DNA from: Minisyncoccota bacterium
GTDB lineage: Bacteria; Patescibacteriota; Minisyncoccia; Phycocordibacterales; UBA9973
Assembly (NCBI GenBank): GCA_041674285.1
Contig: JBAYVZ010000005.1
Location: forward strand, 5,176-69,175
Reading direction: 5' to 3'
DNA: 64,000 bases
Numbering within the stretch: the first letter of the stretch is position 1; each line of letters begins with the position of its first letter. Under the pieces are notes generated by a model. It searched no databases, was not told the DNA's origin, and saw nothing but the letters and a program-made list of their open reading frames with translations. The translations under genes were made by a program, and so were the position numbers. This document shows, piece after piece, positions 1,780 through 51,857 of this stretch.

Positions 1780-1896
1780 TCCCGTTAGAGATGCGTTGTT
1801 GTAAATTTACGGGATAGTGTAAAATAAGAAGAGGAACATATTATTAACAATAATTAACAAGATACGGAAGTCTTTGGACTTCCTATCTCTAACGGG
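1780..1896 (+). repeat. start-codon-abutting structured element (family 1), copy 1
   Basis: 5' arm TCCCGTTAGAGAT (1780-1792) and 3' arm ATCTCTAACGGG (1885-1896). Inner hairpin GATACGGAAGTC-TTTG-GACTTCCTATC. ATG follows at 1897. Confidence 0.85.
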
Positions 1897-2405: not shown

Positions 2406-3320
2406 ATGGAAAAGCTTTGGCCAATCACATTAACGAGGAAAATATCTGATATACACTGCGGTGGTTTCACCATGGCAGAGGAAGAGAGTCTCGGCTTCAA
2501 AGCAGGTGAATTATTTGAGGCACCGAATGAGCTTTTTGAACTAGTGACATTTCACAAGAAAAATCTTTCAACAAATTTACATAAATACAAAGAGGTAATA
2601 ATAAAAAATAACGATTACACCGAGGTCAGACCTGGGGTTTTTGCTCATGCAGGTGCAGTTATAGATGAGCAAGTGGTCTTTAATACAAAAAATGGCTTGG
2701 TCATAGTAGAAAAAGGGGCGCATATAAATCCATTTAATTATATAGCTGGGCCAGTACGTATAGACGAGAGTGCGACAATTAACCCGCATTCAAATATTTC
2801 AAATTCTTATATAGGTAAATACTGCAAAGTGGGAGGTGAAGTCTCAAATTCTATAATAGAGTCATACAGCAACAAAGGTCATCATGGATACCTGGGTGAT
2901 AGTTATGTAGGCTCATGGGTAAATATCGGTGGGGGCGCGTCAACATCAAATCTTAAAAATACATACGGAAAGATAAAGCTAGGTGGGGTAGAGACCGGGG
3001 AGCAATTCCTAGGATCAGTCATCGCCGACCATGCAAAAATAGCCATAAATGTATCTATATATACAGGAAAAGTAATCGGCGTGGCCGCTCACGTATATGA
3101 CACAGTCACAATAGATGTGCCCTCATTTACAAATTATATTTCAAAAGAAAATATGACTATTTTACCCGTTGATATAGCAGTAAAAATAGCAGGACGAATG
3201 CAAGAACGTCGGGGTATAAATACTATAGAGGAGGACAAAGCTATGCTATCATATGCTTATAATGCCACCGAAGGTGAACGAAAGAGTGCTGGCGTTACAG
3301 AAGGTAAATTAGCATTTTAA
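2406..3320 (+). CDS. left-handed beta-helix (hexapeptide-repeat) transferase-like protein
   Basis: Repeated [LIV]-G-x4 hexapeptide pattern (IGKYCKVGGEVSNSIIESYSNKGHHGYLGDSYVGSWVNIGGGASTSN). The start codon is uncertain. Confidence 0.55.
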   Translation: MEKLWPITLTRKISDIHCGGFTMAEEESLGFKAGELFEAPNELFELVTFHKKNLSTNLHKYKEVIIKNNDYTEVRPGVFAHAGAVIDEQVVFNTKNGLVIVEKGAHINPFNYIAGPVRIDESATINPHSNISNSYIGKYCKVGGEVSNSIIESYSNKGHHGYLGDSYVGSWVNIGGGASTSNLKNTYGKIKLGGVETGEQFLGSVIADHAKIAINVSIYTGKVIGVAAHVYDTVTIDVPSFTNYISKENMTILPVDIAVKIAGRMQERRGINTIEEDKAMLSYAYNATEGERKSAGVTEGKLAF

Positions 3321-3324
3321 ACCA

Positions 3325-3459
3325 AAAAATTGCAAATTTTTTCTTCGCATATCTTTTCTAGGGTACACAAATTTTTTGCTAAAAATTTGTGAGAGTCTAG
3401 CGCCGGTCGCGCTGTAGAAGCCCCTAAAAAAGATAAGCGTGCGACAATTTGCAATTTTT
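3325..3459 (+). repeat. palindromic intergenic element (family 2), copy A
   Basis: TTCTTCGCATATCTTTTCTAGGG...CCCCTAAAAAAGATAAGCGTGCGAC with inner hairpins GTAAATTTTT/AAAAATTTAC-like and a GC-rich hairpin. Outer arms AAAAATTGCAAATT / AATTTGCAATTTTT. Ends 10 nt before the tdh ATG. Confidence 0.8.
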
Positions 3460-4420: not shown

Positions 4421-4546
4421 TATAAATTCGTCGCACGTGTATCTTTTTTAAGGGCTTCTGCAGCGCGACTGGCGCGAAGCCTGAGTAAATTTTTAGCAAA
4501 AAATTTACGTACCTTAAAAAAGATATACGAAGAAAGAATTTATAAA
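4421..4546 (-). repeat. palindromic intergenic element (family 2), copy B (inverted relative to A and C)
   Basis: Its reverse complement aligns almost base for base with copy C (…CTTCGTATATCTTTTTTAAGGTACGTAAATTTTTTGCTAAAAATTTACTCAGGCTTCGCGCCAGTCGCGCTGCAGAAGCCC…). Ends 9 nt before the kbl ATG. Confidence 0.8.
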
Positions 4547-4554
4547 TTATTCAT

Positions 4555-7633: not shown

Positions 7634-7785
7634 ATAATATAATAAGCGGGCCAAATCCATCTGCTTTGTTGTCGATTCCGTTTACTCCCGCAATGTAGAT
7701 AACTACATCTTGGTCATAATACTCATCGACGCCTCGCATCTGCATTCGTCCGGCTGATTATATGATTATACATTTAAACCATTTA

Positions 7786-7917
7786 TTTTAAAAATCCTTT
7801 CTTCGCATATCTTTTCTAGGGTACGTAAATTTTTTGCTAAAAATTTACTCAGGCTTCGCGCCAGTTGCGCTGTAGAAGCCCCTAAAAAAGATACGCGTGC
7901 GACAGATTTTGCAAAAT
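7786..7917 (+). repeat. palindromic intergenic element (family 2), copy C
   Basis: CTTCGCATATCTTTTCTAGGGTACGTAAATTTTTTGCTAAAAATTTACTCAGGCTTCGCGCCAGTTGCGCTGTAGAAGCCCCTAAAAAAGATACGCGTGCGAC. Near-identical to A and to rc(B). Confidence 0.8.
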
Positions 7918-7935: not shown

Positions 7936-8054
7936 TCCCGTTAGAAGTCATATATGTCATTCAAGCTACGGAGACTGTTTAAATAAATTATTTATATTCG
8001 ATATTATTAGTTAAATTATGTACGATAATCTAAAGATTATCTACTTCTAACGGG
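7936..8054 (+). repeat. start-codon-abutting structured element (family 1), copy 2
   Basis: Arms CCCGTTAGAAGT (7937-7948) / ACTTCTAACGGG (8043-8054). Inner hairpin GATAATC-TAAA-GATTATC. ATG at 8055. Confidence 0.8.
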
Positions 8055-19882: not shown

Positions 19883-22882
19883 ATGTCAGGACACGAATCA
19901 CATGGGCACGAAAAAAAAGTTGTCATCCGAAAACCTATCAAAAAATATGAAAAGGAGGAAAATATAACTGATGAATATATAGAAAACCTGGGGGCAGAAC
20001 TCATAATAATAAGAGACCAGCTGGCAGATCTAGAGGAGAGAATGCACGGGAAACTGAGCTCAAAGGATAAACACGACATAGAACACCTAATACATGAAAA
20101 AACAGAGAGGGAAATACATCTCTTAAATGAACAGGCTCGTGCTTTTATTTATTCCATAAAAGAAGAAGAGGCACTAACAAAAGCAAGAGAGAGGGTAAAT
20201 TTTTTAAAAAAAGACATTCCCCATGAGAAAATCCCAGAACTAAAAAAGAAAAAAGAGAATGAGCTTACTGAACTAGAAGAAAACATAATTACACAAAGCT
20301 TAAAAGCAGAAAAGAACAAGGAAAATATTGAGGATGCAAAAATACAAATTCAATTAAATAGAACTCGATCTGAGTATGCAAAAGAATTCAAAAAGCACAA
20401 TAAAGGAATTAAAACGAGGAAGGCAATAGACTCTGTATCTACTTATTTAAAAAATATCGGAATAAAGACAAAGAACAAATTAAACTCAATAAGACCATCC
20501 TCTTGGGATTGGACACGGGATGATTTTGCAAAGGGGAATAATGGACAAAAAAACCTTTTAAAGAAAAAAGATATTTCAGAGTATGAGACACCTGAGCTAA
20601 AAGCAAAGAGGGGAGCCTATGATGCAGCTCGTCTTGCTTTTGCAGATAGAATGTACGAGAAGAGAAAAAACGAGCTCGCAAGCGCAAGCTCAATAACAGA
20701 AGAAGCAGCAGTGGAAGAACTCAGAGAAAAAGAACTTCACAAAGCAGAAGCAAGTGGTGTGAATATGAGCCTGGACGACATAAAAGAATGGGAAGAAATA
20801 TTTAAGCGTAAAGTAAAATCCGGTGAATACAAAGATGAAATAGAAGAAATAAAAAACAGAGGAAAGATAGATTCTACAGAACAGATAAGGAGATTACAAC
20901 AATTTAAGGCAAAAGAAATACTTCAAAAAACTTTCTTTGATGAAAGAAGGAGGGTATATGAGGAGAGTGGTGTACCAGAGAGGGGTGCAGTTTTGAAATT
21001 GATGCATGGGTATGCGAGCCTGCCAAGATGGAAAAGAATCACACTGTCTACAATACTATTCACTGCTGGTGGAGTAACAGGGGCAATCCCATTCGCCCCT
21101 TTTGCTGGAGCAATGATAGCAAAATACGGCATAATATCTTACGCCGGGATGAGATTTGGTTTAAGTGCTTTTACAGCAGGAGTAGCAACAGAGGGCGCAA
21201 GGGGAGCAGATCGGTGGAATCACAAAAAAGATGAAGAATTTAAAAAAGAACAAGCGAGAAAAAGAAAAGAATCAGAGGATCAATTTGCAAATGGAGAGAT
21301 AAGCAAAGAAACACATGAAAAAAATCTTATTTCCATAGAAATAGATGAAAATGAAGATAGAAAAAAAAGAATGAGAATAAAGGCTGTAGTTGGAACACTA
21401 CTAGGTGTTGGAGCGGGAGCTGGGGCTTATCAATTAATAGGTGGAATGATGACCCCAGAAAATGAACACATAACACCACCAATGACAAAAGGAGAGCACT
21501 TTACTAAAGCGCCTGCACCAGTTCAACTAGAAAAAACCCTCGATGAATTTGCAGTGAAAGCAGACAGGGTAGAGGCAGTACCTACACCCCCAGCACCGAT
21601 TAGTACAGGAGGAGATCCAGTAATGTTAAAATACCCAGATCTAAATATCGACCAGACAGAGTTTAAAAATATGGAAGGGGGGCTAGCTACTACATCAGAT
21701 TTCACTCCACATACTACAGCAGATGAATTCAACCCAGGTAATTCAAATGCAGACCAAACACCTGCAGTAGAAAAACCAAAATACAATTTTGGAGATTATA
21801 ATCCAGATGAAAGGAATCTCAACCAAGAGAATCCTGAATCCGGGGAGAGATTAGAACTACCAAAGACCCCAGCCCCAGAGGGGCAAGAGAACCCTGAATC
21901 TGGAGAAAGGTTAGATATACCAGAGACTCCAGATCCAACTGGCCAAGAGAACCCTGAATCTGGAGAAAGGTTAGATATACCAGAGACTACAGGGGATGCA
22001 ACAGAGCCAAAAATAGAGAGTCCTACATCTACAGAAAATACAAATACTGAATCTGATATAAATAATAGTACTGAAAAGCCTAAACTTAAAATAAATTTTG
22101 AAGAGACTCAGAAGATCCAAGAAAATCAATTGACTGAACTTAAAAATGAACTAGGCGAAAAAGAATACAACAAGATAATTAAAGATCTAGAATCTAAAAA
22201 CATTCCCTACAAATCAGACTCAACGGCATTCCGAACAATTTCAATAGGAGAAAGTACTAATGAAAATTTTGCGAGAACTATTGCTAGAAATTATGCTGGT
22301 TCTCAGGTTCTAGAACAAACAGGTCAAACACAAGCAACAATAGGTAGTAGCCGAATCTTAGATTCACACATGTACAAACTTCCTAACGGGGAATACCGAA
22401 GTGTGATAATATTTGAAACAGAAAAAGTAAACGGGCAAGATGTTGGCGAGCTTTTAAACACAGAAAAAAGCCCAATAACAGAAGTCCCAGAGAGCACTGG
22501 AAATGGGGAAGAAATGAAAATCAACCCTCAGGAGACAAAAGGAAGTATGGAGGCTCCAAACATAGAAAGTGAGACTAACCTTGCCATTGAAAATATAATA
22601 AAGGAAGGGAAATACAAGGATATAGTTAAAAACGTAGAAATGCTTGGTTATAAATTTGAAGGGTCTCGCAGTGCAGATGTTACTGTTCTAAAATTCCTAG
22701 AATCTTACAAGTCTGGTGAATACACATTAGCAATAGACTCAGCAGATGCTCCTACACACAATCTTGCGTCTCAAGCAATTAGCCAGAGACAAGACCTCGT
22801 AAACACAGCAGAAAAAATGAATCTATGGAAAAAAACTGACAGTGGATATCATATGATTTCTATTCGTTTAATCAAAAAATAA
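19883..22882 (+). CDS. large membrane protein with N-terminal coiled-coil and repeat-bearing C-terminal ectodomain
   Basis: 999 aa. Has a K/E-rich N-terminal third, hydrophobic segments (ITLSTILFTAGGVTGAIPFAPFAGAMIA, AVVGTLLGVGAGAGAYQLIGGMM) and three QENPESGERL(D/E)(I/L)P repeats. Confidence 0.7.
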   Translation: MSGHESHGHEKKVVIRKPIKKYEKEENITDEYIENLGAELIIIRDQLADLEERMHGKLSSKDKHDIEHLIHEKTEREIHLLNEQARAFIYSIKEEEALTKARERVNFLKKDIPHEKIPELKKKKENELTELEENIITQSLKAEKNKENIEDAKIQIQLNRTRSEYAKEFKKHNKGIKTRKAIDSVSTYLKNIGIKTKNKLNSIRPSSWDWTRDDFAKGNNGQKNLLKKKDISEYETPELKAKRGAYDAARLAFADRMYEKRKNELASASSITEEAAVEELREKELHKAEASGVNMSLDDIKEWEEIFKRKVKSGEYKDEIEEIKNRGKIDSTEQIRRLQQFKAKEILQKTFFDERRRVYEESGVPERGAVLKLMHGYASLPRWKRITLSTILFTAGGVTGAIPFAPFAGAMIAKYGIISYAGMRFGLSAFTAGVATEGARGADRWNHKKDEEFKKEQARKRKESEDQFANGEISKETHEKNLISIEIDENEDRKKRMRIKAVVGTLLGVGAGAGAYQLIGGMMTPENEHITPPMTKGEHFTKAPAPVQLEKTLDEFAVKADRVEAVPTPPAPISTGGDPVMLKYPDLNIDQTEFKNMEGGLATTSDFTPHTTADEFNPGNSNADQTPAVEKPKYNFGDYNPDERNLNQENPESGERLELPKTPAPEGQENPESGERLDIPETPDPTGQENPESGERLDIPETTGDATEPKIESPTSTENTNTESDINNSTEKPKLKINFEETQKIQENQLTELKNELGEKEYNKIIKDLESKNIPYKSDSTAFRTISIGESTNENFARTIARNYAGSQVLEQTGQTQATIGSSRILDSHMYKLPNGEYRSVIIFETEKVNGQDVGELLNTEKSPITEVPESTGNGEEMKINPQETKGSMEAPNIESETNLAIENIIKEGKYKDIVKNVEMLGYKFEGSRSADVTVLKFLESYKSGEYTLAIDSADAPTHNLASQAISQRQDLVNTAEKMNLWKKTDSGYHMISIRLIKK
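21824..21990 (+). repeat. 60-bp in-frame tandem repeat, about 2.8 copies
   Basis: Units start at 21824, 21884 and 21944 (CAAGAGAAYCCTGAATC...). Units 2 and 3 are identical over about 46 nt. Confidence 0.85.
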
Positions 22883-23257: not shown

Positions 23258-23269
23258 AGAACCAATGTC

Positions 23270-23388
23270 TCCCGTTAGAGATTCGCTTGTTATATTTCTA
23301 ATTTGAGGTGATTTGCAAAATGAATGTCGTATTATTTACTATATATTAACAAAGGGCGGTAATGTAAACATTACCTATCTCTAACGGG
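23270..23388 (+). repeat. start-codon-abutting structured element (family 1), copy 4
   Basis: Arms TCCCGTTAGAGAT (23270-23282) / ATCTCTAACGGGA (23377-23389). Inner hairpin GGTAATGT-AAA-CATTACC. ATG at 23389. Confidence 0.85.
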
Positions 23389-25320
23389 ATGGATTATCTA
23401 AATACACTAAATGAAAAGCAGAAAGAAGCGGTCCTTCAGACAGAGGGGCCGCTTCTGATTGTAGCAGGGGCCGGAGCAGGAAAGACCAAGACTCTAACAC
23501 ATCGAATCGTACATATAGTACATGGTGGAGTGAAGCCAGAGAATATACTAGCAGTTACTTTTACCAATAAAGCCGCAAAAGAGATGAGAGAAAGAGTGAT
23601 AGGACTACTTTCACAGAGGGAAAACGGTGCCCCCGCTGGTGGACATAGTGGTTATCCATTTGTTTCTACATTTCACGCACTCGGAGTAAGAATTATAAAG
23701 GAGAATGCGCACTTACTAGGCCTGACAAAGCACTTTGTCATAGCAGATGACGATGACTGCATGAAGATTATCAAGGAATCTCTCAAGACCCGCGACATAG
23801 ACCCAAAGCAGTATGAGCCGAGAAAGATCAAGAGTATCATTTCTCGAGCAAAGGGGGATTTTATAAACATAGATAAATTCTCAAATGAAGTAAAATCAGG
23901 ATTTGAAAGTGTGGTCGCTACTATCTGGCGTGACTATGAAAGAACTCTTAAATCAGAAAAGGCTCTAGACTTTGATGACCTATTGATCGAGACTGTGATG
24001 ATTTTGAAAAAGTATCCAGAAGTAAAACTACACTATCAAAATCAATGGCAGTATATCCATGTGGATGAATATCAGGATACCAATGAGGTACAGTATGAGA
24101 TGGTAAAGCTACTCGTAGGACCCAGGGAGAATATCTGTGTAGTGGGTGATACAGATCAGAATATCTATAGTTGGCGCGGAGCAAATATAAAGAACATGCT
24201 TCATTTTGAAAAAGATTATCCGAAAACTGTGATTGTGATGCTCGAACAGAATTACCGATCCACAAAGAATATAATCGAGGCAGCAAACAATGTGATAAAT
24301 AAAAATGTATTCCGAGTGCCAAAGACGCTCTTCACAGAAAAGGAGACAGGGGAGGATATCACAATATACGAGGCCTTCGACGAGATATATGAGGGGCAGT
24401 ATGTAGCAAATCAGATCCATGAATTGCTCCGTGAAAATAAACCCGAAGATATAGCTATACTCTATCGTGCGAATTTCCAATCCCGCGTATTAGAGGAAGC
24501 GATGCTTTCAAAAAATATCCCATACCAAGTCCTCGGTACAAAGTTCTTTGACCGAAAAGAAATTAAAGATGTCCTATCTTATCTACGTGCAGCATTGAAT
24601 CGTGATAGTCTGTCAGACATCAAGAGGGTGATCAATACTCCCGCTCGAGGTATCGGAAAAGTGACTCTAGTAAAACTATTCTCCGGAGGAATCAATGACT
24701 TGCCAGCTAGTATGCAGATGAAGATCAGTAACTTCTACAATTTACTAGATGAGATCCATGAATACGCCATGGTGAACAAGCCAAGTGAAATAATAAAATT
24801 CATCATTGAGCGTAGTGGACTAGAAGAAGAACTTAAAAAGGGCACTAGCGATGACCTAGAGAGACTAGAAAACATGAAGGAACTAGTGACACTCGCCATC
24901 CGATACGATGGTTTCGATATCGAGGAGGGTATAGATAAAATACTCGAAGACGCAGCACTATCTAGTGATCAAGACAGCCTGATAAACAAGCCAAAACCAG
25001 GAGGAGTACGCCTGATGACTGTGCACGCATCCAAAGGCCTTGAATTCAAATACGTATTTATCACAGGCCTTGAAAAAGATTTATTCCCGCACTCACGCCC
25101 CGGTGGAGGCAAGAAGGAGGATAGCGAGGAGGAGCGCAGACTATTCTATGTAGCACTGACTCGCGCCGAGAAAAAGCTATATCTATGCTATGCATCACTA
25201 CGAACAATATTCGGTATGAAGCAGGTAAATACCCCTAGTGAATTCCTAGAAGACATACCATCACACCTAGTAGAGTATGATAGGGGTGGCGGAAATGGAG
25301 AAAGGATTGTGTATATTTAA
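23389..25320 (+). CDS. pcrA: UvrD/PcrA-family ATP-dependent DNA helicase
   Basis: Walker A AGAGAGKTKTLTHR, a DEYQDTN motif, and TVHASKGLEF and LFYVALTRA motifs. Confidence 0.9.
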   Translation: MDYLNTLNEKQKEAVLQTEGPLLIVAGAGAGKTKTLTHRIVHIVHGGVKPENILAVTFTNKAAKEMRERVIGLLSQRENGAPAGGHSGYPFVSTFHALGVRIIKENAHLLGLTKHFVIADDDDCMKIIKESLKTRDIDPKQYEPRKIKSIISRAKGDFINIDKFSNEVKSGFESVVATIWRDYERTLKSEKALDFDDLLIETVMILKKYPEVKLHYQNQWQYIHVDEYQDTNEVQYEMVKLLVGPRENICVVGDTDQNIYSWRGANIKNMLHFEKDYPKTVIVMLEQNYRSTKNIIEAANNVINKNVFRVPKTLFTEKETGEDITIYEAFDEIYEGQYVANQIHELLRENKPEDIAILYRANFQSRVLEEAMLSKNIPYQVLGTKFFDRKEIKDVLSYLRAALNRDSLSDIKRVINTPARGIGKVTLVKLFSGGINDLPASMQMKISNFYNLLDEIHEYAMVNKPSEIIKFIIERSGLEEELKKGTSDDLERLENMKELVTLAIRYDGFDIEEGIDKILEDAALSSDQDSLINKPKPGGVRLMTVHASKGLEFKYVFITGLEKDLFPHSRPGGGKKEDSEEERRLFYVALTRAEKKLYLCYASLRTIFGMKQVNTPSEFLEDIPSHLVEYDRGGGNGERIVYI

Positions 25321-34690: not shown

Positions 34691-34701
34691 AAAATAGATG
34701 G

Positions 34702-34821
34702 ATCCCGTTAGAGATGTGTTGTTAATAAAATAAAATATAAGTTAAAATTAAGTATAAAATAATATTACATAATAAAAATTAATAAGATACGGAAATGTAA
34801 ACATTTCCTATCTCTAATGGG
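34702..34821 (+). repeat. start-codon-abutting structured element (family 1), copy 5
   Basis: Arms ATCCCGTTAGAGAT (34702-34715) / ATCTCTAATGGGAT (34810-34823, one G-U wobble). Inner hairpin GATACGGAAATGT-AAA-CATTTCCTATC. The upstream stop lies 11 nt before the arm. Confidence 0.85.
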
Positions 34822-35979
34822 ATGGACAAAACAGAACTACAAAAACAAATAGCAGAATACTTTTCAAAGCTACCACCAGAAGCTGCTGCTATTTTTAGTA
34901 GCATGGCCTGGATAGATCAGACAGAAGAAATAGGCAATAGGTATAATCTGACAGAGGACCAATTAAAAGCCCTAATAACAGAGACTAGCCTGGCTCTCCT
35001 AGGAGTCATACACTTGAATCAATATGAGGATATATTAATCCAAGAACTCGCTCTCCCTAAAGAAAAGATAGCACCCATGATATCTGAAATAGATAGGGAA
35101 GTATTCGCATCTATCCGCCCAGCCCTAGAAAATACATTTGAATCAAACATAGAGAACATAGCAAAAAACAAATACGGTGGAGCTCAGAATATGGACGACA
35201 GATTCAAAGGGTTGCCACCTGCTGTCCAAGAGGCTATAACAAATTCCAACTACAAAAAGAACCTATACAATATAGCCAGTAAGTACAAATTGAACATGCC
35301 GAGCATGAGCACCCTAGATGAAGTAACCACAAAAGTCATGCTAGGGATAATCCCCAGTGAAAACTACAAAAATGAACTGTCAGCAGGGGTCCAAGCTTCG
35401 CCAGAAAATATAGATCTCATAGTATCAGAAGTCAATGAACAGGTTTTTAAAAACATAAGGTCATTCCTAATTCAAAATACAAAAAGAGATGACGCTGAAA
35501 AAGAAAAAATAGAGATACCGATACCTCCATATAAGAAATCAAATATCCCGACACCCCCATACAAGAAAACAGAGCCATTCGTTCCAGTAAATTTACCAAT
35601 CGCAGAATTTGAAAAAAAAGAGACGGATGATGGCATGAAAATATCGGGGATAGAGATACTAGCAGACGAGAATACAGAAGAAAAAGTAGACGAAGAAAAA
35701 GTTACAATAAAAGAAGACAATATAATGGTAAAATCTGGGGTCTCGGTAGTAGAAGAGGGTAACAATCCCCAGGAATCACACATTATACCGAGCAAGGAAA
35801 CACAAAAATCAGTATTGTACGGTATAGAGAACCCCCAATCAACAAAATCAATACTAAATATGAAGCTCCAGGGAGCAACATCAAGTGGAGTATCCAAAAG
35901 CAATCAACCAATATCAAATATACCTCCACAAAACACAACAAAGTCAGTGATTCATGATCCATATCATGAGCAAATATAA
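34822..35979 (+). CDS. hypothetical protein of the T4SS-like locus
   Basis: 385 aa with a short internal repeat IPIPPYKKSNIPTPPYKKTEP. No recognised domain. Confidence 0.55.
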   Translation: MDKTELQKQIAEYFSKLPPEAAAIFSSMAWIDQTEEIGNRYNLTEDQLKALITETSLALLGVIHLNQYEDILIQELALPKEKIAPMISEIDREVFASIRPALENTFESNIENIAKNKYGGAQNMDDRFKGLPPAVQEAITNSNYKKNLYNIASKYKLNMPSMSTLDEVTTKVMLGIIPSENYKNELSAGVQASPENIDLIVSEVNEQVFKNIRSFLIQNTKRDDAEKEKIEIPIPPYKKSNIPTPPYKKTEPFVPVNLPIAEFEKKETDDGMKISGIEILADENTEEKVDEEKVTIKEDNIMVKSGVSVVEEGNNPQESHIIPSKETQKSVLYGIENPQSTKSILNMKLQGATSSGVSKSNQPISNIPPQNTTKSVIHDPYHEQI

Positions 35980-35994
35980 ACACCAATCATATAC

Positions 35995-44807: not shown

Positions 44808-44924
44808 CCCATTAGAGATAGGAAATGCTTACATTTCCGTTTCTTTTTAATTTAAATTAATAAATACAACCTTATTTATAAGCAAACCTACATAAAAAAC
44901 ACAAACAACATATCTCTAACGGGA
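44808..44924 (-). repeat. start-codon-abutting structured element (family 1), copy 8
   Basis: Read in minus sense: arms TCCCGTTAGAGAT / ATCTCTAATGGG (G-U wobble). Inner hairpin ACGGAAATG-TAAG-CATTTCCT. The rnpA TAG stop (44916-44918) lies inside the 5' arm. Confidence 0.85.
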
Positions 44925-45251
44925 CAAGTATAATCCTGCTTTTTTAAATAAATAGACAATATTTTCAGATATTTGATCATTTTCAGCTTTTAAAGCCTCC
45001 TTTTTAAAGAAAAGAGCGCCGATAAAAGGCTTTGCCAGTAATGGGCCAGCCATACGATAACCCTTTCTCCTGAGAGAATTCCTTAAAACAGCTGTTTTTG
45101 CAACGCTTTTCGGGGCAACTACAGCAAAATGAACCACACCATCAGTGGAGGGTATATACCGGAAAGTAAAAAGAGGGCTTGAGACCATTTTTCCTTCTTT
45201 CATAATGGCTTCAAAAACCCCCTTATTAACACGATGCTTTTTGGAAAGCAT
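44916..45251 (-). CDS. rnpA: ribonuclease P protein component
   Basis: 111 aa basic protein (FAVVAPKSVAKTAVLRNSLRRKGYR), immediately downstream of rpmH. Confidence 0.85.
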   Translation of the reverse strand: MLSKKHRVNKGVFEAIMKEGKMVSSPLFTFRYIPSTDGVVHFAVVAPKSVAKTAVLRNSLRRKGYRMAGPLLAKPFIGALFFKKEALKAENDQISENIVYLFKKAGLYLSR

Positions 45252-51005: not shown

Positions 51006-51077
51006 AAGTTAATAATAACATACTATATTCTATAAATATGGCAATTGTGGGATAATTTAATTATGAGAAAAAAATCA

Positions 51078-51192
51078 TCAACCCCGTCCTCTGATTACAG
51101 AGTCCACCCCTCAAGAGGGGAATTAAATATGAATACAAAAAATACATCCACCCCACCTTTTGATTACAAAAGGCACCCCTCAAGAGGGGAAT
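51078..51192 (+). repeat. two direct family-3 units
   Basis: TCAACCCCGTCCTCTGATTACAGAGTCCACCCCTCAAGAGGGGAAT (51078-51123) and TCCACCCCACCTTTTGATTACAAAAGGCACCCCTCAAGAGGGGAAT (51147-51192). Confidence 0.8.
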
Positions 51193-51599
51193 TTTGGGAT
51201 ACAGGTTCTTTGTATCCATATTGGGAAATTCCTAAAAATAAACTTTTAATCTCACGAGCAAAAGAATTAAGAAAAGCTGGCAATTTAGCGGAAGTTATTT
51301 TTTGGAAAACTTTCAATGATAAAAATAAAATAGGTTTTGATATTGATCGGCAAGTTATAGTAGGGAACTATATTGTCGATTTTTTTATCCCGGAATTGGG
51401 TTTAGTTTTTGAAATAGACGGATCGAGTCACGATAATAAAATAGATTATGATGCCGAACGGGATGCATTTATGAATGACCTTGGATTGTTTGTTATTCGA
51501 ATTCCTGATGTAGATGTGAAGAAAAATATGGAAAGTGTCTATAATTTTGTAACTAATATAATTTTAGAAAGAACAAATAAACTCAAGGGTTTTTCTTAG
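51129..51599 (+). CDS. DUF559 (Vsr-like) endonuclease-domain protein
   Basis: C-terminal ...AEVIFWKTFNDKNKIGFDIDRQVIVGNYIVDFFIPELGLVFEIDGSSHD...RDAFMNDLGLFVIRIP matches the DUF559 pattern. The true start is uncertain because the 5' end overlaps repeat DNA. Confidence 0.65.
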   Translation: MNTKNTSTPPFDYKRHPSRGEFWDTGSLYPYWEIPKNKLLISRAKELRKAGNLAEVIFWKTFNDKNKIGFDIDRQVIVGNYIVDFFIPELGLVFEIDGSSHDNKIDYDAERDAFMNDLGLFVIRIPDVDVKKNMESVYNFVTNIILERTNKLKGFS

Positions 51600-51719: not shown

Positions 51720-51780
51720 TTGGTTCATAACTCCAATCAAAATACCCACGACATATGTCTGAAAACATTAATTTTTTAAA

Positions 51781-51826
51781 ATTCCCCTCTTGAGGGGTGG
51801 CATTTGTACTCAAATGACGGGGTGGA
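51781..51826 (-). repeat. family-3 unit in inverted orientation
   Basis: ATTCCCCTCTTGAGGGGTGGCATTTGTACTCAAATGACGGGGTGGA is the reverse complement of the unit consensus. Confidence 0.8.
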
Positions 51827-51857
51827 TGTATTGAATTTGGTGTGGTAAAGTATAAAT

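Follow-up and report, generated by a model that had tools for sequence, protein, structure and literature searches.

Matched inverted ends of a small mobile DNA element that inserts at gene start codons in Patescibacteria

The closing helix of a repeated ~116-nt sequence, previously read as a selected RNA structure, is the pair of matched inverted ends of a small mobile DNA element that inserts exactly at gene start codons in Patescibacteria. Relatives of the element at full length have the same ends and encode a GIY-YIG nuclease of 84 residues, so the sequence is not a conserved regulatory RNA of the genes downstream of it. I put the probability of this reading at about three in four. The element came to notice through a first-pass annotation of 64,000 nucleotides from a Minisyncoccota bacterium (the window; contig JBAYVZ010000005.1 of GCA_041674285.1, positions 5,176 to 69,175, 38.5% G+C). 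That annotation held that the closing helix shows only compensatory changes, that its wobble pairs fit only the sense transcript, and that selection on RNA secondary structure is responsible, with a DNA element having matched terminal inverted repeats as the alternative. What it observed proved to be correct. The interpretation it preferred is only partly supported by what follows, while the alternative it set aside is essentially what the evidence shows, with the qualification that the matching of the arms still needs a structural or copying explanation.

The window holds eight copies of 115-118 nt and a truncated ninth:
1781-1896 (+): copy 1, downstream of rpsO, abutting the ATG of the NYN-domain gene 1897-2400.
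7937-8054 (+): copy 2, the subject of the annotation, a 118-nt non-autonomous element with 5' arm 7937-7948, inner hairpin 8024-8030/8035-8041 and 3' arm 8043-8054, abutting the ATG of the PGI-like gene 8055-9080.
11613-11735 (+): copy 3 (element 11619-11735) with the duplicated start ATGGAT at 11613-11618, between the pnp stop (11607) and the ATG of gene 11736-12617.
23265-23388 (+): copy 4 (element 23271-23388) with an upstream ATGTCT at 23265-23270, that ATG preceded by TATAAT plus 7 nt; it abuts the uvrD-like ATG at 23389.
34698-34821 (+): copy 5 (element 34704-34821) with a duplicated ATGGA at 34698-34702 and 3' arm CTAATGGG (G·T). L120 to L124 denote loci from relatives; the site is empty in L120 and L121, and a related copy sits at the same site in L122.
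37112-37232 (+): copy 6 (element 37118-37232), of the extended-helix type, CGCGATC.../GATCGCG with an ATCT bulge, and a duplicated ATGGG at 37112-37116; the site is empty in L120, L121 and L122, which read TATAATATGGGAAT.
43584-43705 (-): copy 7 (element 43584-43699) with a duplicated ATGGAT at 43700-43705, between yidC and jag/khpB; the site is empty in L120-L123, which read ...ATGGATAAAG.
44808-44923 (-): copy 8, between rnpA and yidD, with 3' arm CTAATGGG and 5' junction ACTTGT-CCCG; the site is empty in L120, L121 and L124.
15595-15658 (-): truncated remnant upstream of the TrmB-like gene 14821-15594, keeping the 5' arm CCCGTTAGAAAA and the interior ACGGGA box but with no 3' arm.

The arm pairs are exactly as annotated: GAGAT/ATCTC in copies 1, 3 and 4, GAAGT/ACTTC in copy 2, GAAGC/GCTTC in copy 6 and CCCGTATGAAAT/ATTTCATACGGG in copy 7, with the 3' arm ending in CTAATGGG in copies 5 and 8. 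All 8 substituted arm positions are compensated in the partner arm, and the four inner stems (GGAAGTC/GACTTCC, GGTAATG/CATTACC, GGAAATG/CATTTCC and GATAATC/GATTATC) are present. Each copy folds with the closing helix and a 7-bp hairpin just 5' of the 3' arm, with z = -3.5 to -5.4 against shuffles. The repeats are not due to chance, since CCCGTTAGA with up to 1 mismatch occurs 18 times against 8.1±3.1 expected. The annotation missed the ninth copy and three other features: every copy ends exactly at the ATG of a co-oriented gene, the helix continues for two more pairs (U-A and A/G-U) into that ATG, and the 5' flank usually reads ATGNRT, repeating the first five bases of the gene.

A covariation test on a larger alignment had been proposed as the way to check the helix, and the pairing stood up to a comparison with shuffled alignments. 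A scan of one genome per species with CCCGTTAGA-N90-106-TCTAAYGGGATG found at least 119 loci in many CPR lineages, and from these and the window I extracted 135 copies that precede an ORF. Positions 1-9 of the arms were fixed by the search pattern, but positions 10-12, which were free, show only transitions, occur in all eight R-R-Y combinations and are 94% Watson-Crick. In 113 distinct copies, from the window and about 100 other genomes, the 14-bp helix is 98.6% paired, while slid controls fall to 36-45%. Five pairs change on both sides, positions 10-12 doing so in 49, 53 and 46 sequences, and 0/500 shuffles reach the observed values. The inner hairpin has 34 distinct complementary stems among 50 scored. 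Pairing is therefore maintained and not accidental, and the covariation implies selection for base pairing in a single-stranded nucleic acid.

One might suppose instead that the matched arms reflect only the common descent of subfamilies, with no constraint on pairing. The copies are indeed related and recent, some arm variants, such as CTAATGGG, are subfamily markers, and the shuffle controls ignore relatedness. But all eight combinations at positions 10-12 occur with matched partners, further double changes occur at positions 1, 2 and 8, and the inner hairpin has its 34 stems. Each new matched variant needs two changes, so without constraint or copying mismatches would dominate, whereas 94-99% of pairs are Watson-Crick. 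I regard descent alone as very unlikely.

The wobble argument does not survive. If the sense RNA were the selected molecule, then G·U should far outnumber A·C on that strand, and equality of the two was the outcome that the annotation itself had agreed would refute it. At arm positions not fixed by the search pattern the counts of G·U and A·C are 10 and 11 in the 135 short copies (positions 10-12) and 2 and 6 in 60 full-length elements, which were found through their protein so that their arms are unbiased between the two mismatch types; in the inner hairpin they are 13 and 7. The total is 25 against 24. Moreover, the two G·U arms of the window (copies 5 and 8) share the same inner stem, GGAAATGTAA(A/G)CATTTCC, and the same T variant is present in a related copy in L122, so they mark one subfamily and are not two independent events. 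Both DNA strands fold into the same architecture (copy 2: -16.4 and -16.8 kcal/mol), and a same-sense bias would in any case not separate RNA from single-stranded DNA of that strand.

Then there is the evidence that the element moves. Through YidC homologues, syntenic loci were found in relatives at 93%, 81%, 80% and 71% identity. All lack the element at the jag, yidD and traG starts, and those at 93% and 81% also lack it at the start of the 385-aa gene, so that four of the window's insertion points are empty in close relatives. Empty and filled sites differ by the element plus a duplication: at jag, ...TTT ATGGA TAAAG (empty) against ...ATGGA T[CCCG...CGGG] ATGGA TAAAG (filled), and at traG, TATAAT ATGGG AAT against TATAAT ATGGG T[CCCG...CGGG] ATGGG AAT. 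Across the 135 copies, 86 have a perfect 5-nt repeat (ATGNR), 8 a 4-nt repeat and 4 a 6-nt repeat, and about 28% have mismatched or decayed flanks; the NR positions match in 97 copies against 40.4±4.2 when permuted. Tandem copies are separated by ATGAAT.

The copy in L122 at the site of copy 5 is clearly related to it, with about 80% identity in the interior. It has A-T where the window has G·T, and it has an A·C mismatch at position 10. Since L120 and L121 are empty at this site, either the same site was hit twice or the element can be lost precisely, and the comparison does not tell the two apart. Where the same gene carries a copy in two genomes, the copies mostly belong to different subfamilies or orientations, so such recurrence does not inform on descent.

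The reading of the sequence as a conserved cis-regulatory RNA (riboswitch or leader) of the downstream genes draws support from covariation in two helices and from the position in front of genes in the sense orientation. It is nonetheless contradicted by the empty orthologous sites, the duplications flanking the copies and the nuclease encoded in full-length versions also weigh against it, and I consider it highly improbable. The interior is poorly conserved. The genes downstream have no common function: in the window they are NYN, PGI-like, UvrD, a VirB4/TraG-like ATPase, Jag/KhpB, YidD and two unknowns, and overall they form 119 clusters among 135. Rfam 15 gives no hits at gathering thresholds and, at E ≤ 1, nothing that falls on the elements.

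Other identities were considered and set aside. No tRNA-like sequence or tmRNA was found. An integron attC site is ruled out, by inspection, because the GTT...AAC order is the reverse of R''/R' and the flanking genes are housekeeping genes. An archaeal-type bulge-helix-bulge intron or a group I/II intron is ruled out because there are no bulges, the element is too small and an ORF runs through it. An outward -10 promoter that would give a leaderless host mRNA is ruled out because the bases at -12 to -7 are arm sequence (ATCTCT/TCTAAC), not TATAAT-like. RNase P or RNase Z style processing was rejected by reasoning only, in that the predicted cut positions do not give a 5'-AUG.

The coding partner appeared among arm pairs with unusual spacing. 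The locus L074 carries a 278-nt version whose interior is an 84-aa ORF with a GIY-YIG domain (Pfam, E = 3.6e-16, covering residues 3-68), and 374 protein clusters match it. All 120 of those examined end in the residues encoded by the 3' arm (107 LGASYL, 9 LGASYF and 4 single-residue variants, or, as also tallied, 117 LGASYL/F and 3 single-residue variants), read from GCT TCC TAT CTC TAA-CGGG-ATG. The 91-92-aa forms, 16 of the 120, begin MxPVRD, which is the duplicated ATG read through the 5' arm. A metagenome scan gave 80 loci and 60 unique elements of 272-282 nt with both arms, the 5' arm TCCCGTTAGAGAT and the 3' arm ATCTCTAACGGGA, bracketing an intact ORF for a single-domain nuclease of 84-87 aa (UPF0213/Ssn-like). 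Most lie directly next to a host ATG and carry the same flank repeats, and their downstream sequences differ.

Two reading frames are in use. In one the stop is the TAA inside the arm, 4 nt before the host ATG, and in the other the ORF ends ...FLSLTG and its TGA overlaps the host ATG (ATGA). The terminal ~22 nt are the same DNA in both frames and are therefore conserved as nucleic acid and not as protein. The protein itself is under purifying selection: pairwise differences at codon positions 1/2/3 are 0.116/0.074/0.322, and 21/21 ORFs are intact. Its closest solved relative is UPF0213 BH0048 (E = 8e-9), which belongs to the YhbQ/YazA/Slx1 group (PMC7017083). That this protein mobilises the element has not been shown, nor is GIY-YIG a known transposase class in bacteria, so whether the long form is the mobilising partner of the short ones is left undecided.

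The window's copies are best seen as MITE-like deletion derivatives of this longer form. They are short, have terminal inverted repeats of 12 bp plus T/A, contain no conserved ORF, are flanked by target duplications and differ in presence between orthologous sites. The full-length element has a second inverted pair, GGAAGCGCCTAA...TTAGGCGCTTCC, which encloses the middle of the ORF, and in the short copies these two strands are adjacent (ACGG-stem-loop-stem-CCT), so that the inner hairpin next to the 3' arm is what remains after loss of the ORF segment between them. A 192-nt intermediate (at the locus L071) and minimal forms of 55-95 nt also exist. An nhmmer model of the full-length element matches the window copies only at model positions 1 to ~20 (to 53 in one copy) and 254-277, and homology of their interior to the N-terminal coding region, though suggestive by eye, is not significant; the derivative relationship therefore rests on the ends, the inner stem and the intermediate forms. 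No full-length copy was found by tblastn in the 64-kb window. About 95% of short copies keep the CCT side next to the gene, but six have the interior inverted and still precede intact genes.

How might insertion at a start codon be tolerated? The host, a Patescibacteria (Paceibacteria/Nomurabacteria-like) bacterium, has genes that lack Shine-Dalgarno motifs (2/42), and 18/42 have a strong -10 hexamer within 2-12 nt of the start, with a sharp peak at 6 nt (10/42), while random positions score 8% over all spacings. I infer that leaderless mRNAs are common in this organism. A -10 box at the 6-nt spacing stands upstream of the duplicated ATG in 17/94 copies (33/94 at any of the tested spacings, 2-12 nt), the same peak as for ordinary genes. 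Transcription and initiation should therefore begin at the upstream copy of the start codon, which keeps the host's initiation signal, and run into the element. The stop of the nuclease ORF, on or next to the host ATG, is the classical arrangement for termination-reinitiation. In the short copies the frame opened by the duplicated ATG runs through the whole element to that stop in 27/94 cases, against 7.4±2.5 after shuffling the interiors, and some ORF of ≥16 codons ends at the host ATG in 76/135 copies, against 32.4±4.6. The encoded peptides share only the residues specified by the arms, so what is kept is the openness of the frame. Most of the AT-rich window copies, however, have early stops in the upstream frame, and their host genes must be reached in another way; this is the main gap in the account, and it is here that a role for the helix as RNA remains possible.

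The comparison of sequences shows directly that the element inserts at start codons with duplication of ATGNR, that it lies co-oriented with the host gene, that many genes in these genomes have a -10 box in place of a Shine-Dalgarno sequence, and that the nuclease ORF ends in one of the two ways described. It is inference that the host protein is made by termination-reinitiation, and inference also that the arms and inner stem stay complementary because the element is handled as a folded single strand. Arm positions 1-9 are almost invariant across the phylum, which suggests recognition by a protein, while positions 10-12 and the inner stem vary freely but remain paired, which suggests a folded strand. 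The most likely form is a DNA hairpin bound or cut by the GIY-YIG nuclease, by analogy to the Ssn nucleases, which recognise hairpin repeats only as ssDNA. The analogy is indirect, because by sequence the protein is nearer UPF0213 than the characterised Ssn clade, and no experiment shows what it cuts. An alternative that also fits the near-perfect pairing and the equal G·T and A·C counts is that one end is copied from the other during mobilisation, mismatches being simply mutations after insertion. By either route, selection acts on element lineages and not on each locus.

It is possible, though doubtful, that the helix acts as RNA in the mRNA, in addition to being the ends of a transposon or instead of that role. 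Pairing of the arms might sequester the AU of the host start codon, opened only when ribosomes that start at the duplicated AUG translate through the 5' arm, or the ~21-bp coaxial stack of arms and inner hairpin might be cut, for example by RNase III, to release a near-leaderless mRNA. In favor of this view, the helix always ends at the ATG and covers its first two bases, copies are co-transcribed inside operons (pnp, yidC, rnpA), the hosts appear to use leaderless mRNAs, the RNA folds are significantly stable, and the ~95% fixed orientation of the interior could reflect selection at the RNA level. Furthermore, in the pair formed by copy 5 and the L122 copy, the 31 nt next to the ATG are identical while the interior is about 20% diverged. 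Weighing on the other side are the absence of an excess of G·U over A·C, the six inverted interiors before intact genes, the near invariance of positions 1-9, which points to protein recognition and not to mere pairing, and the lack of an Rfam match. Finally, the sites are recent insertions, so the matched arm variants were inherited from source elements and not selected at each locus. A role in translational coupling is not excluded.

It is much less likely that the element is bypassed, the ribosome carrying initiator tRNA from the upstream AUG over the folded element to the identical AUGNR downstream, as in T4 gene 60 and the mitochondrial byp elements. Matched 5-nt take-off and landing sequences do flank a stable hairpin, and the elements are mobile, like byps. 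But the duplication is explained by insertion, the nuclease ORF and the enriched through-ORFs show that the element is read and not skipped, and elements occur only at starts and never inside ORFs.

A bolder view, somewhat less likely than not, is that the ~276-bp form is an autonomous mobile element, smaller than any known insertion sequence, encoding only an 84-aa GIY-YIG nuclease. It would specifically invade the start codons of leaderless genes, duplicate the start codon so as to be transcribed and translated from the host's own initiation signal, and hand the ribosome on to the host gene by placing its stop on or next to the host ATG. Its ends would have to fold into a hairpin to be propagated, and its 116-bp derivatives would have spread to about one gene in seven in some Patescibacteria genomes. 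Single-domain GIY-YIG proteins would then join the enzymes that move DNA in bacteria, and the recently described architecture of GIY-YIG gene plus hairpin repeat would gain direct comparative evidence of mobility. Start-codon duplication plus termination-reinitiation would be a way for a parasite to sit at the most sensitive position of a gene without killing it. The findings also point to widespread leaderless expression in CPR bacteria. In practice, the elements cause mis-called gene starts (the 92-aa MNPVRD... nuclease forms and short upstream ORFs are examples) and inflate apparent structured-RNA signals in CPR genomes, and the nuclease and hairpin pairs could extend the toolbox of sequence-specific single-strand nucleases.

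A search of the literature found no description of a start-codon-targeting GIY-YIG element with MITE-like derivatives, although nuclease-plus-hairpin-repeat systems and MITEs are both familiar. The closest published system is that of the Ssn nucleases with their Ssn-related hairpin motifs (NTS/dRS3 of Neisseria; Chenal et al., Nat Commun 2025, PMC11893778). Ssn proteins are ~94-aa single-domain GIY-YIG enzymes whose genes are flanked by hairpin repeats scattered also in hundreds of copies; they bind the folded repeat only as ssDNA, on one strand only, with both sequence and structure required, and cut a few bases outside it. The two systems share a single-domain protein of about 90 aa with the catalytic tyrosines at positions 6 and 17, a gene bracketed by inverted-repeat sequences that also occur in many gene-less copies, an IS-like architecture, a hairpin whose sequence and structure both matter, and an oriented repeat. 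Here, however, the flanks are half-sites that pair with each other across the gene and are not each a local hairpin of 20-50 nt, so the likeness of the flanking repeats, present on both sides and abundantly dispersed, does not settle whether this is the Ssn arrangement. Membership of CDD family cd10448 was not examined (the best solved relative suggests the YhbQ/YazA group instead), and the activity of the enzyme, including cleavage of single-stranded DNA next to the folded repeat, was not assayed. Copies here sit exactly at start codons with an ATGNR duplication, the ORF stop is coupled to the host ATG, and mobility is shown directly by empty sites, whereas the Ssn paper only hypothesised it. 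That paper does not mention Patescibacteria.

Bacterial MITEs that fold as RNA hairpins, such as the Correia elements of Neisseria and ERIC/RUP, are likewise elements of about 100-150 bp with terminal inverted repeats and a target duplication, present in many copies, co-transcribed with neighboring genes and polymorphic in presence between strains. Correia elements, however, duplicate TA and insert in either orientation in intergenic DNA, their presumed transposase is a classical IS enzyme, and none is known to target start codons or to derive from a GIY-YIG gene. REP/REPIN elements with RAYT transposases, and IS200/IS605 (PMC2817692), offer non-autonomous hairpin repeats maintained by compensatory change and thought to be mobilised as single-stranded DNA hairpins by a small nuclease encoded by a gene flanked by the same repeats. 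The enzyme there is an HUH/Y1 transposase, while the gene associated with the present element is GIY-YIG; in addition, no target duplication is made, REPs lie mostly at 3' ends of genes, and a REPIN pairs along its whole length. Free-standing GIY-YIG homing endonuclease genes (T4 seg genes, I-TevI) are also selfish nuclease genes inserted between host genes, but homing enzymes have a separate DNA-binding domain and home to one cognate site by recombination, with no inverted ends, no duplication, no hundreds of sites and no non-coding derivatives, whereas the present element occupies many unrelated sites with duplications.

Of the window's genes, only 2 of 42 have a Shine-Dalgarno motif, while a TATAAT-like box often ends 6 nt before the start codon (10 of 42; for example at the gene starts 26786, 31613, 36457, 45516, and 53097, with others throughout the window). 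This implies that leaderless mRNAs are the norm in this organism.

Then there are the copies of the start-codon element that depart from the usual form, and GIY-YIG pseudogenes that lie outside its arms. The instances considered here, in the window and in loci outside it (designated by L numbers), are these:

Window 15595-15658 (-): a truncated copy, with the 5' arm and about 50 nt but no 3' arm, upstream of a gene encoding a TrmB-like regulator.
Window 44924-44932 and 15659-15667, and loci L019, L064, L148, and L159: an alternative 5' junction.
L184 390-668 and L070 2263-2344: an arm variant with a compensated change at arm position 2.
L066 5107-5274 (-) and 22-259 (+), and L033 3578-3688 (-): frameshifted or truncated GIY-YIG pseudogenes outside the arms.

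The truncated copy has the 5' junction TATACTTGT|CCCG, the same as that of the copy between rnpA and yidD (copy 8). A junction of this kind, (A)CTTGT|CCCG, replaces ATGNRT|CCCG in a minority of copies, 3 of 135 short copies and several full-length ones. It is not a duplicate of the host start and I have no explanation for it, though it may be an element-borne extension or a promoter (TATACT).

The arm variant is TCACGTTAG.../...CTAACGTGA. In the full-length copy (L184), the change at position 2 creates a TGA stop for the nuclease ORF in front of an ATGG host start. The arm sequence and the coding needs of the ORF therefore co-evolve. One of the GIY-YIG pseudogenes outside the arms lies directly upstream of a short element copy.

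Two coding regions of the window deserve mention:

Window 34822-43078: a type IV secretion or competence-like cluster (PrgI-like, TraC-like, VirB4/TraG-like ATPase, and others).
Window 21824-22003: three tandem 60-nt repeats inside the 999-aa ORF at 19883-22882.

The cluster is syntenic in all relatives examined, and two of its genes carry element insertions only in the window's lineage. The three tandem repeats are 67-75% identical to one another and are coding repeats, in a protein that has no Pfam match.

The start-codon element is not the only repeat with the capacity to fold. Two other families occur in the window, and a different repeat is associated with a nuclease gene elsewhere:

Window 44487-44599, 51068-51195, and 51778-51832: a second repeat family.
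Window 3313-3450 (+), 4421-4551 (-), and 7771-7909 (+): a third repeat, of about 125-135 nt, in three copies.
L011 2150-2560 (-): a different small GIY-YIG gene, flanked on both sides by direct copies of another palindromic repeat.

The copies of the third repeat are 82-94% identical, with an outer helix (CGCATATCTTTTCTAGGG / CCCTAAAAAAGATACGCG) and two inner hairpins. They lie next to genes of sugar metabolism (epimerase, aminotransferase, glmS/pgi), one copy in the opposite orientation. The repeat has no match in Rfam and its nature is unknown.

The second family has the unit ...CCACCCC-hairpin-CACCCCTCAAGAGGGGAAT. Between yidD and yidC, two inverted units form a 107-nt hairpin (-65 kcal/mol as RNA). 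Relatives have only about 36 nt there, so this is probably another insertion. The ATTCCCC...GGGGAAT core of the unit resembles ATTCCC-N8-GGGAAT, the core of the Neisseria dRS3/NTS repeat. The palindromic repeat that flanks the small GIY-YIG gene of L011 (CTCTCCGCCAGCTGGCGGAGGGAG) is different again, but the arrangement is the repeat-gene-repeat layout described for Ssn nucleases, and it shows that several such pairs of nuclease and repeat coexist in CPR genomes.
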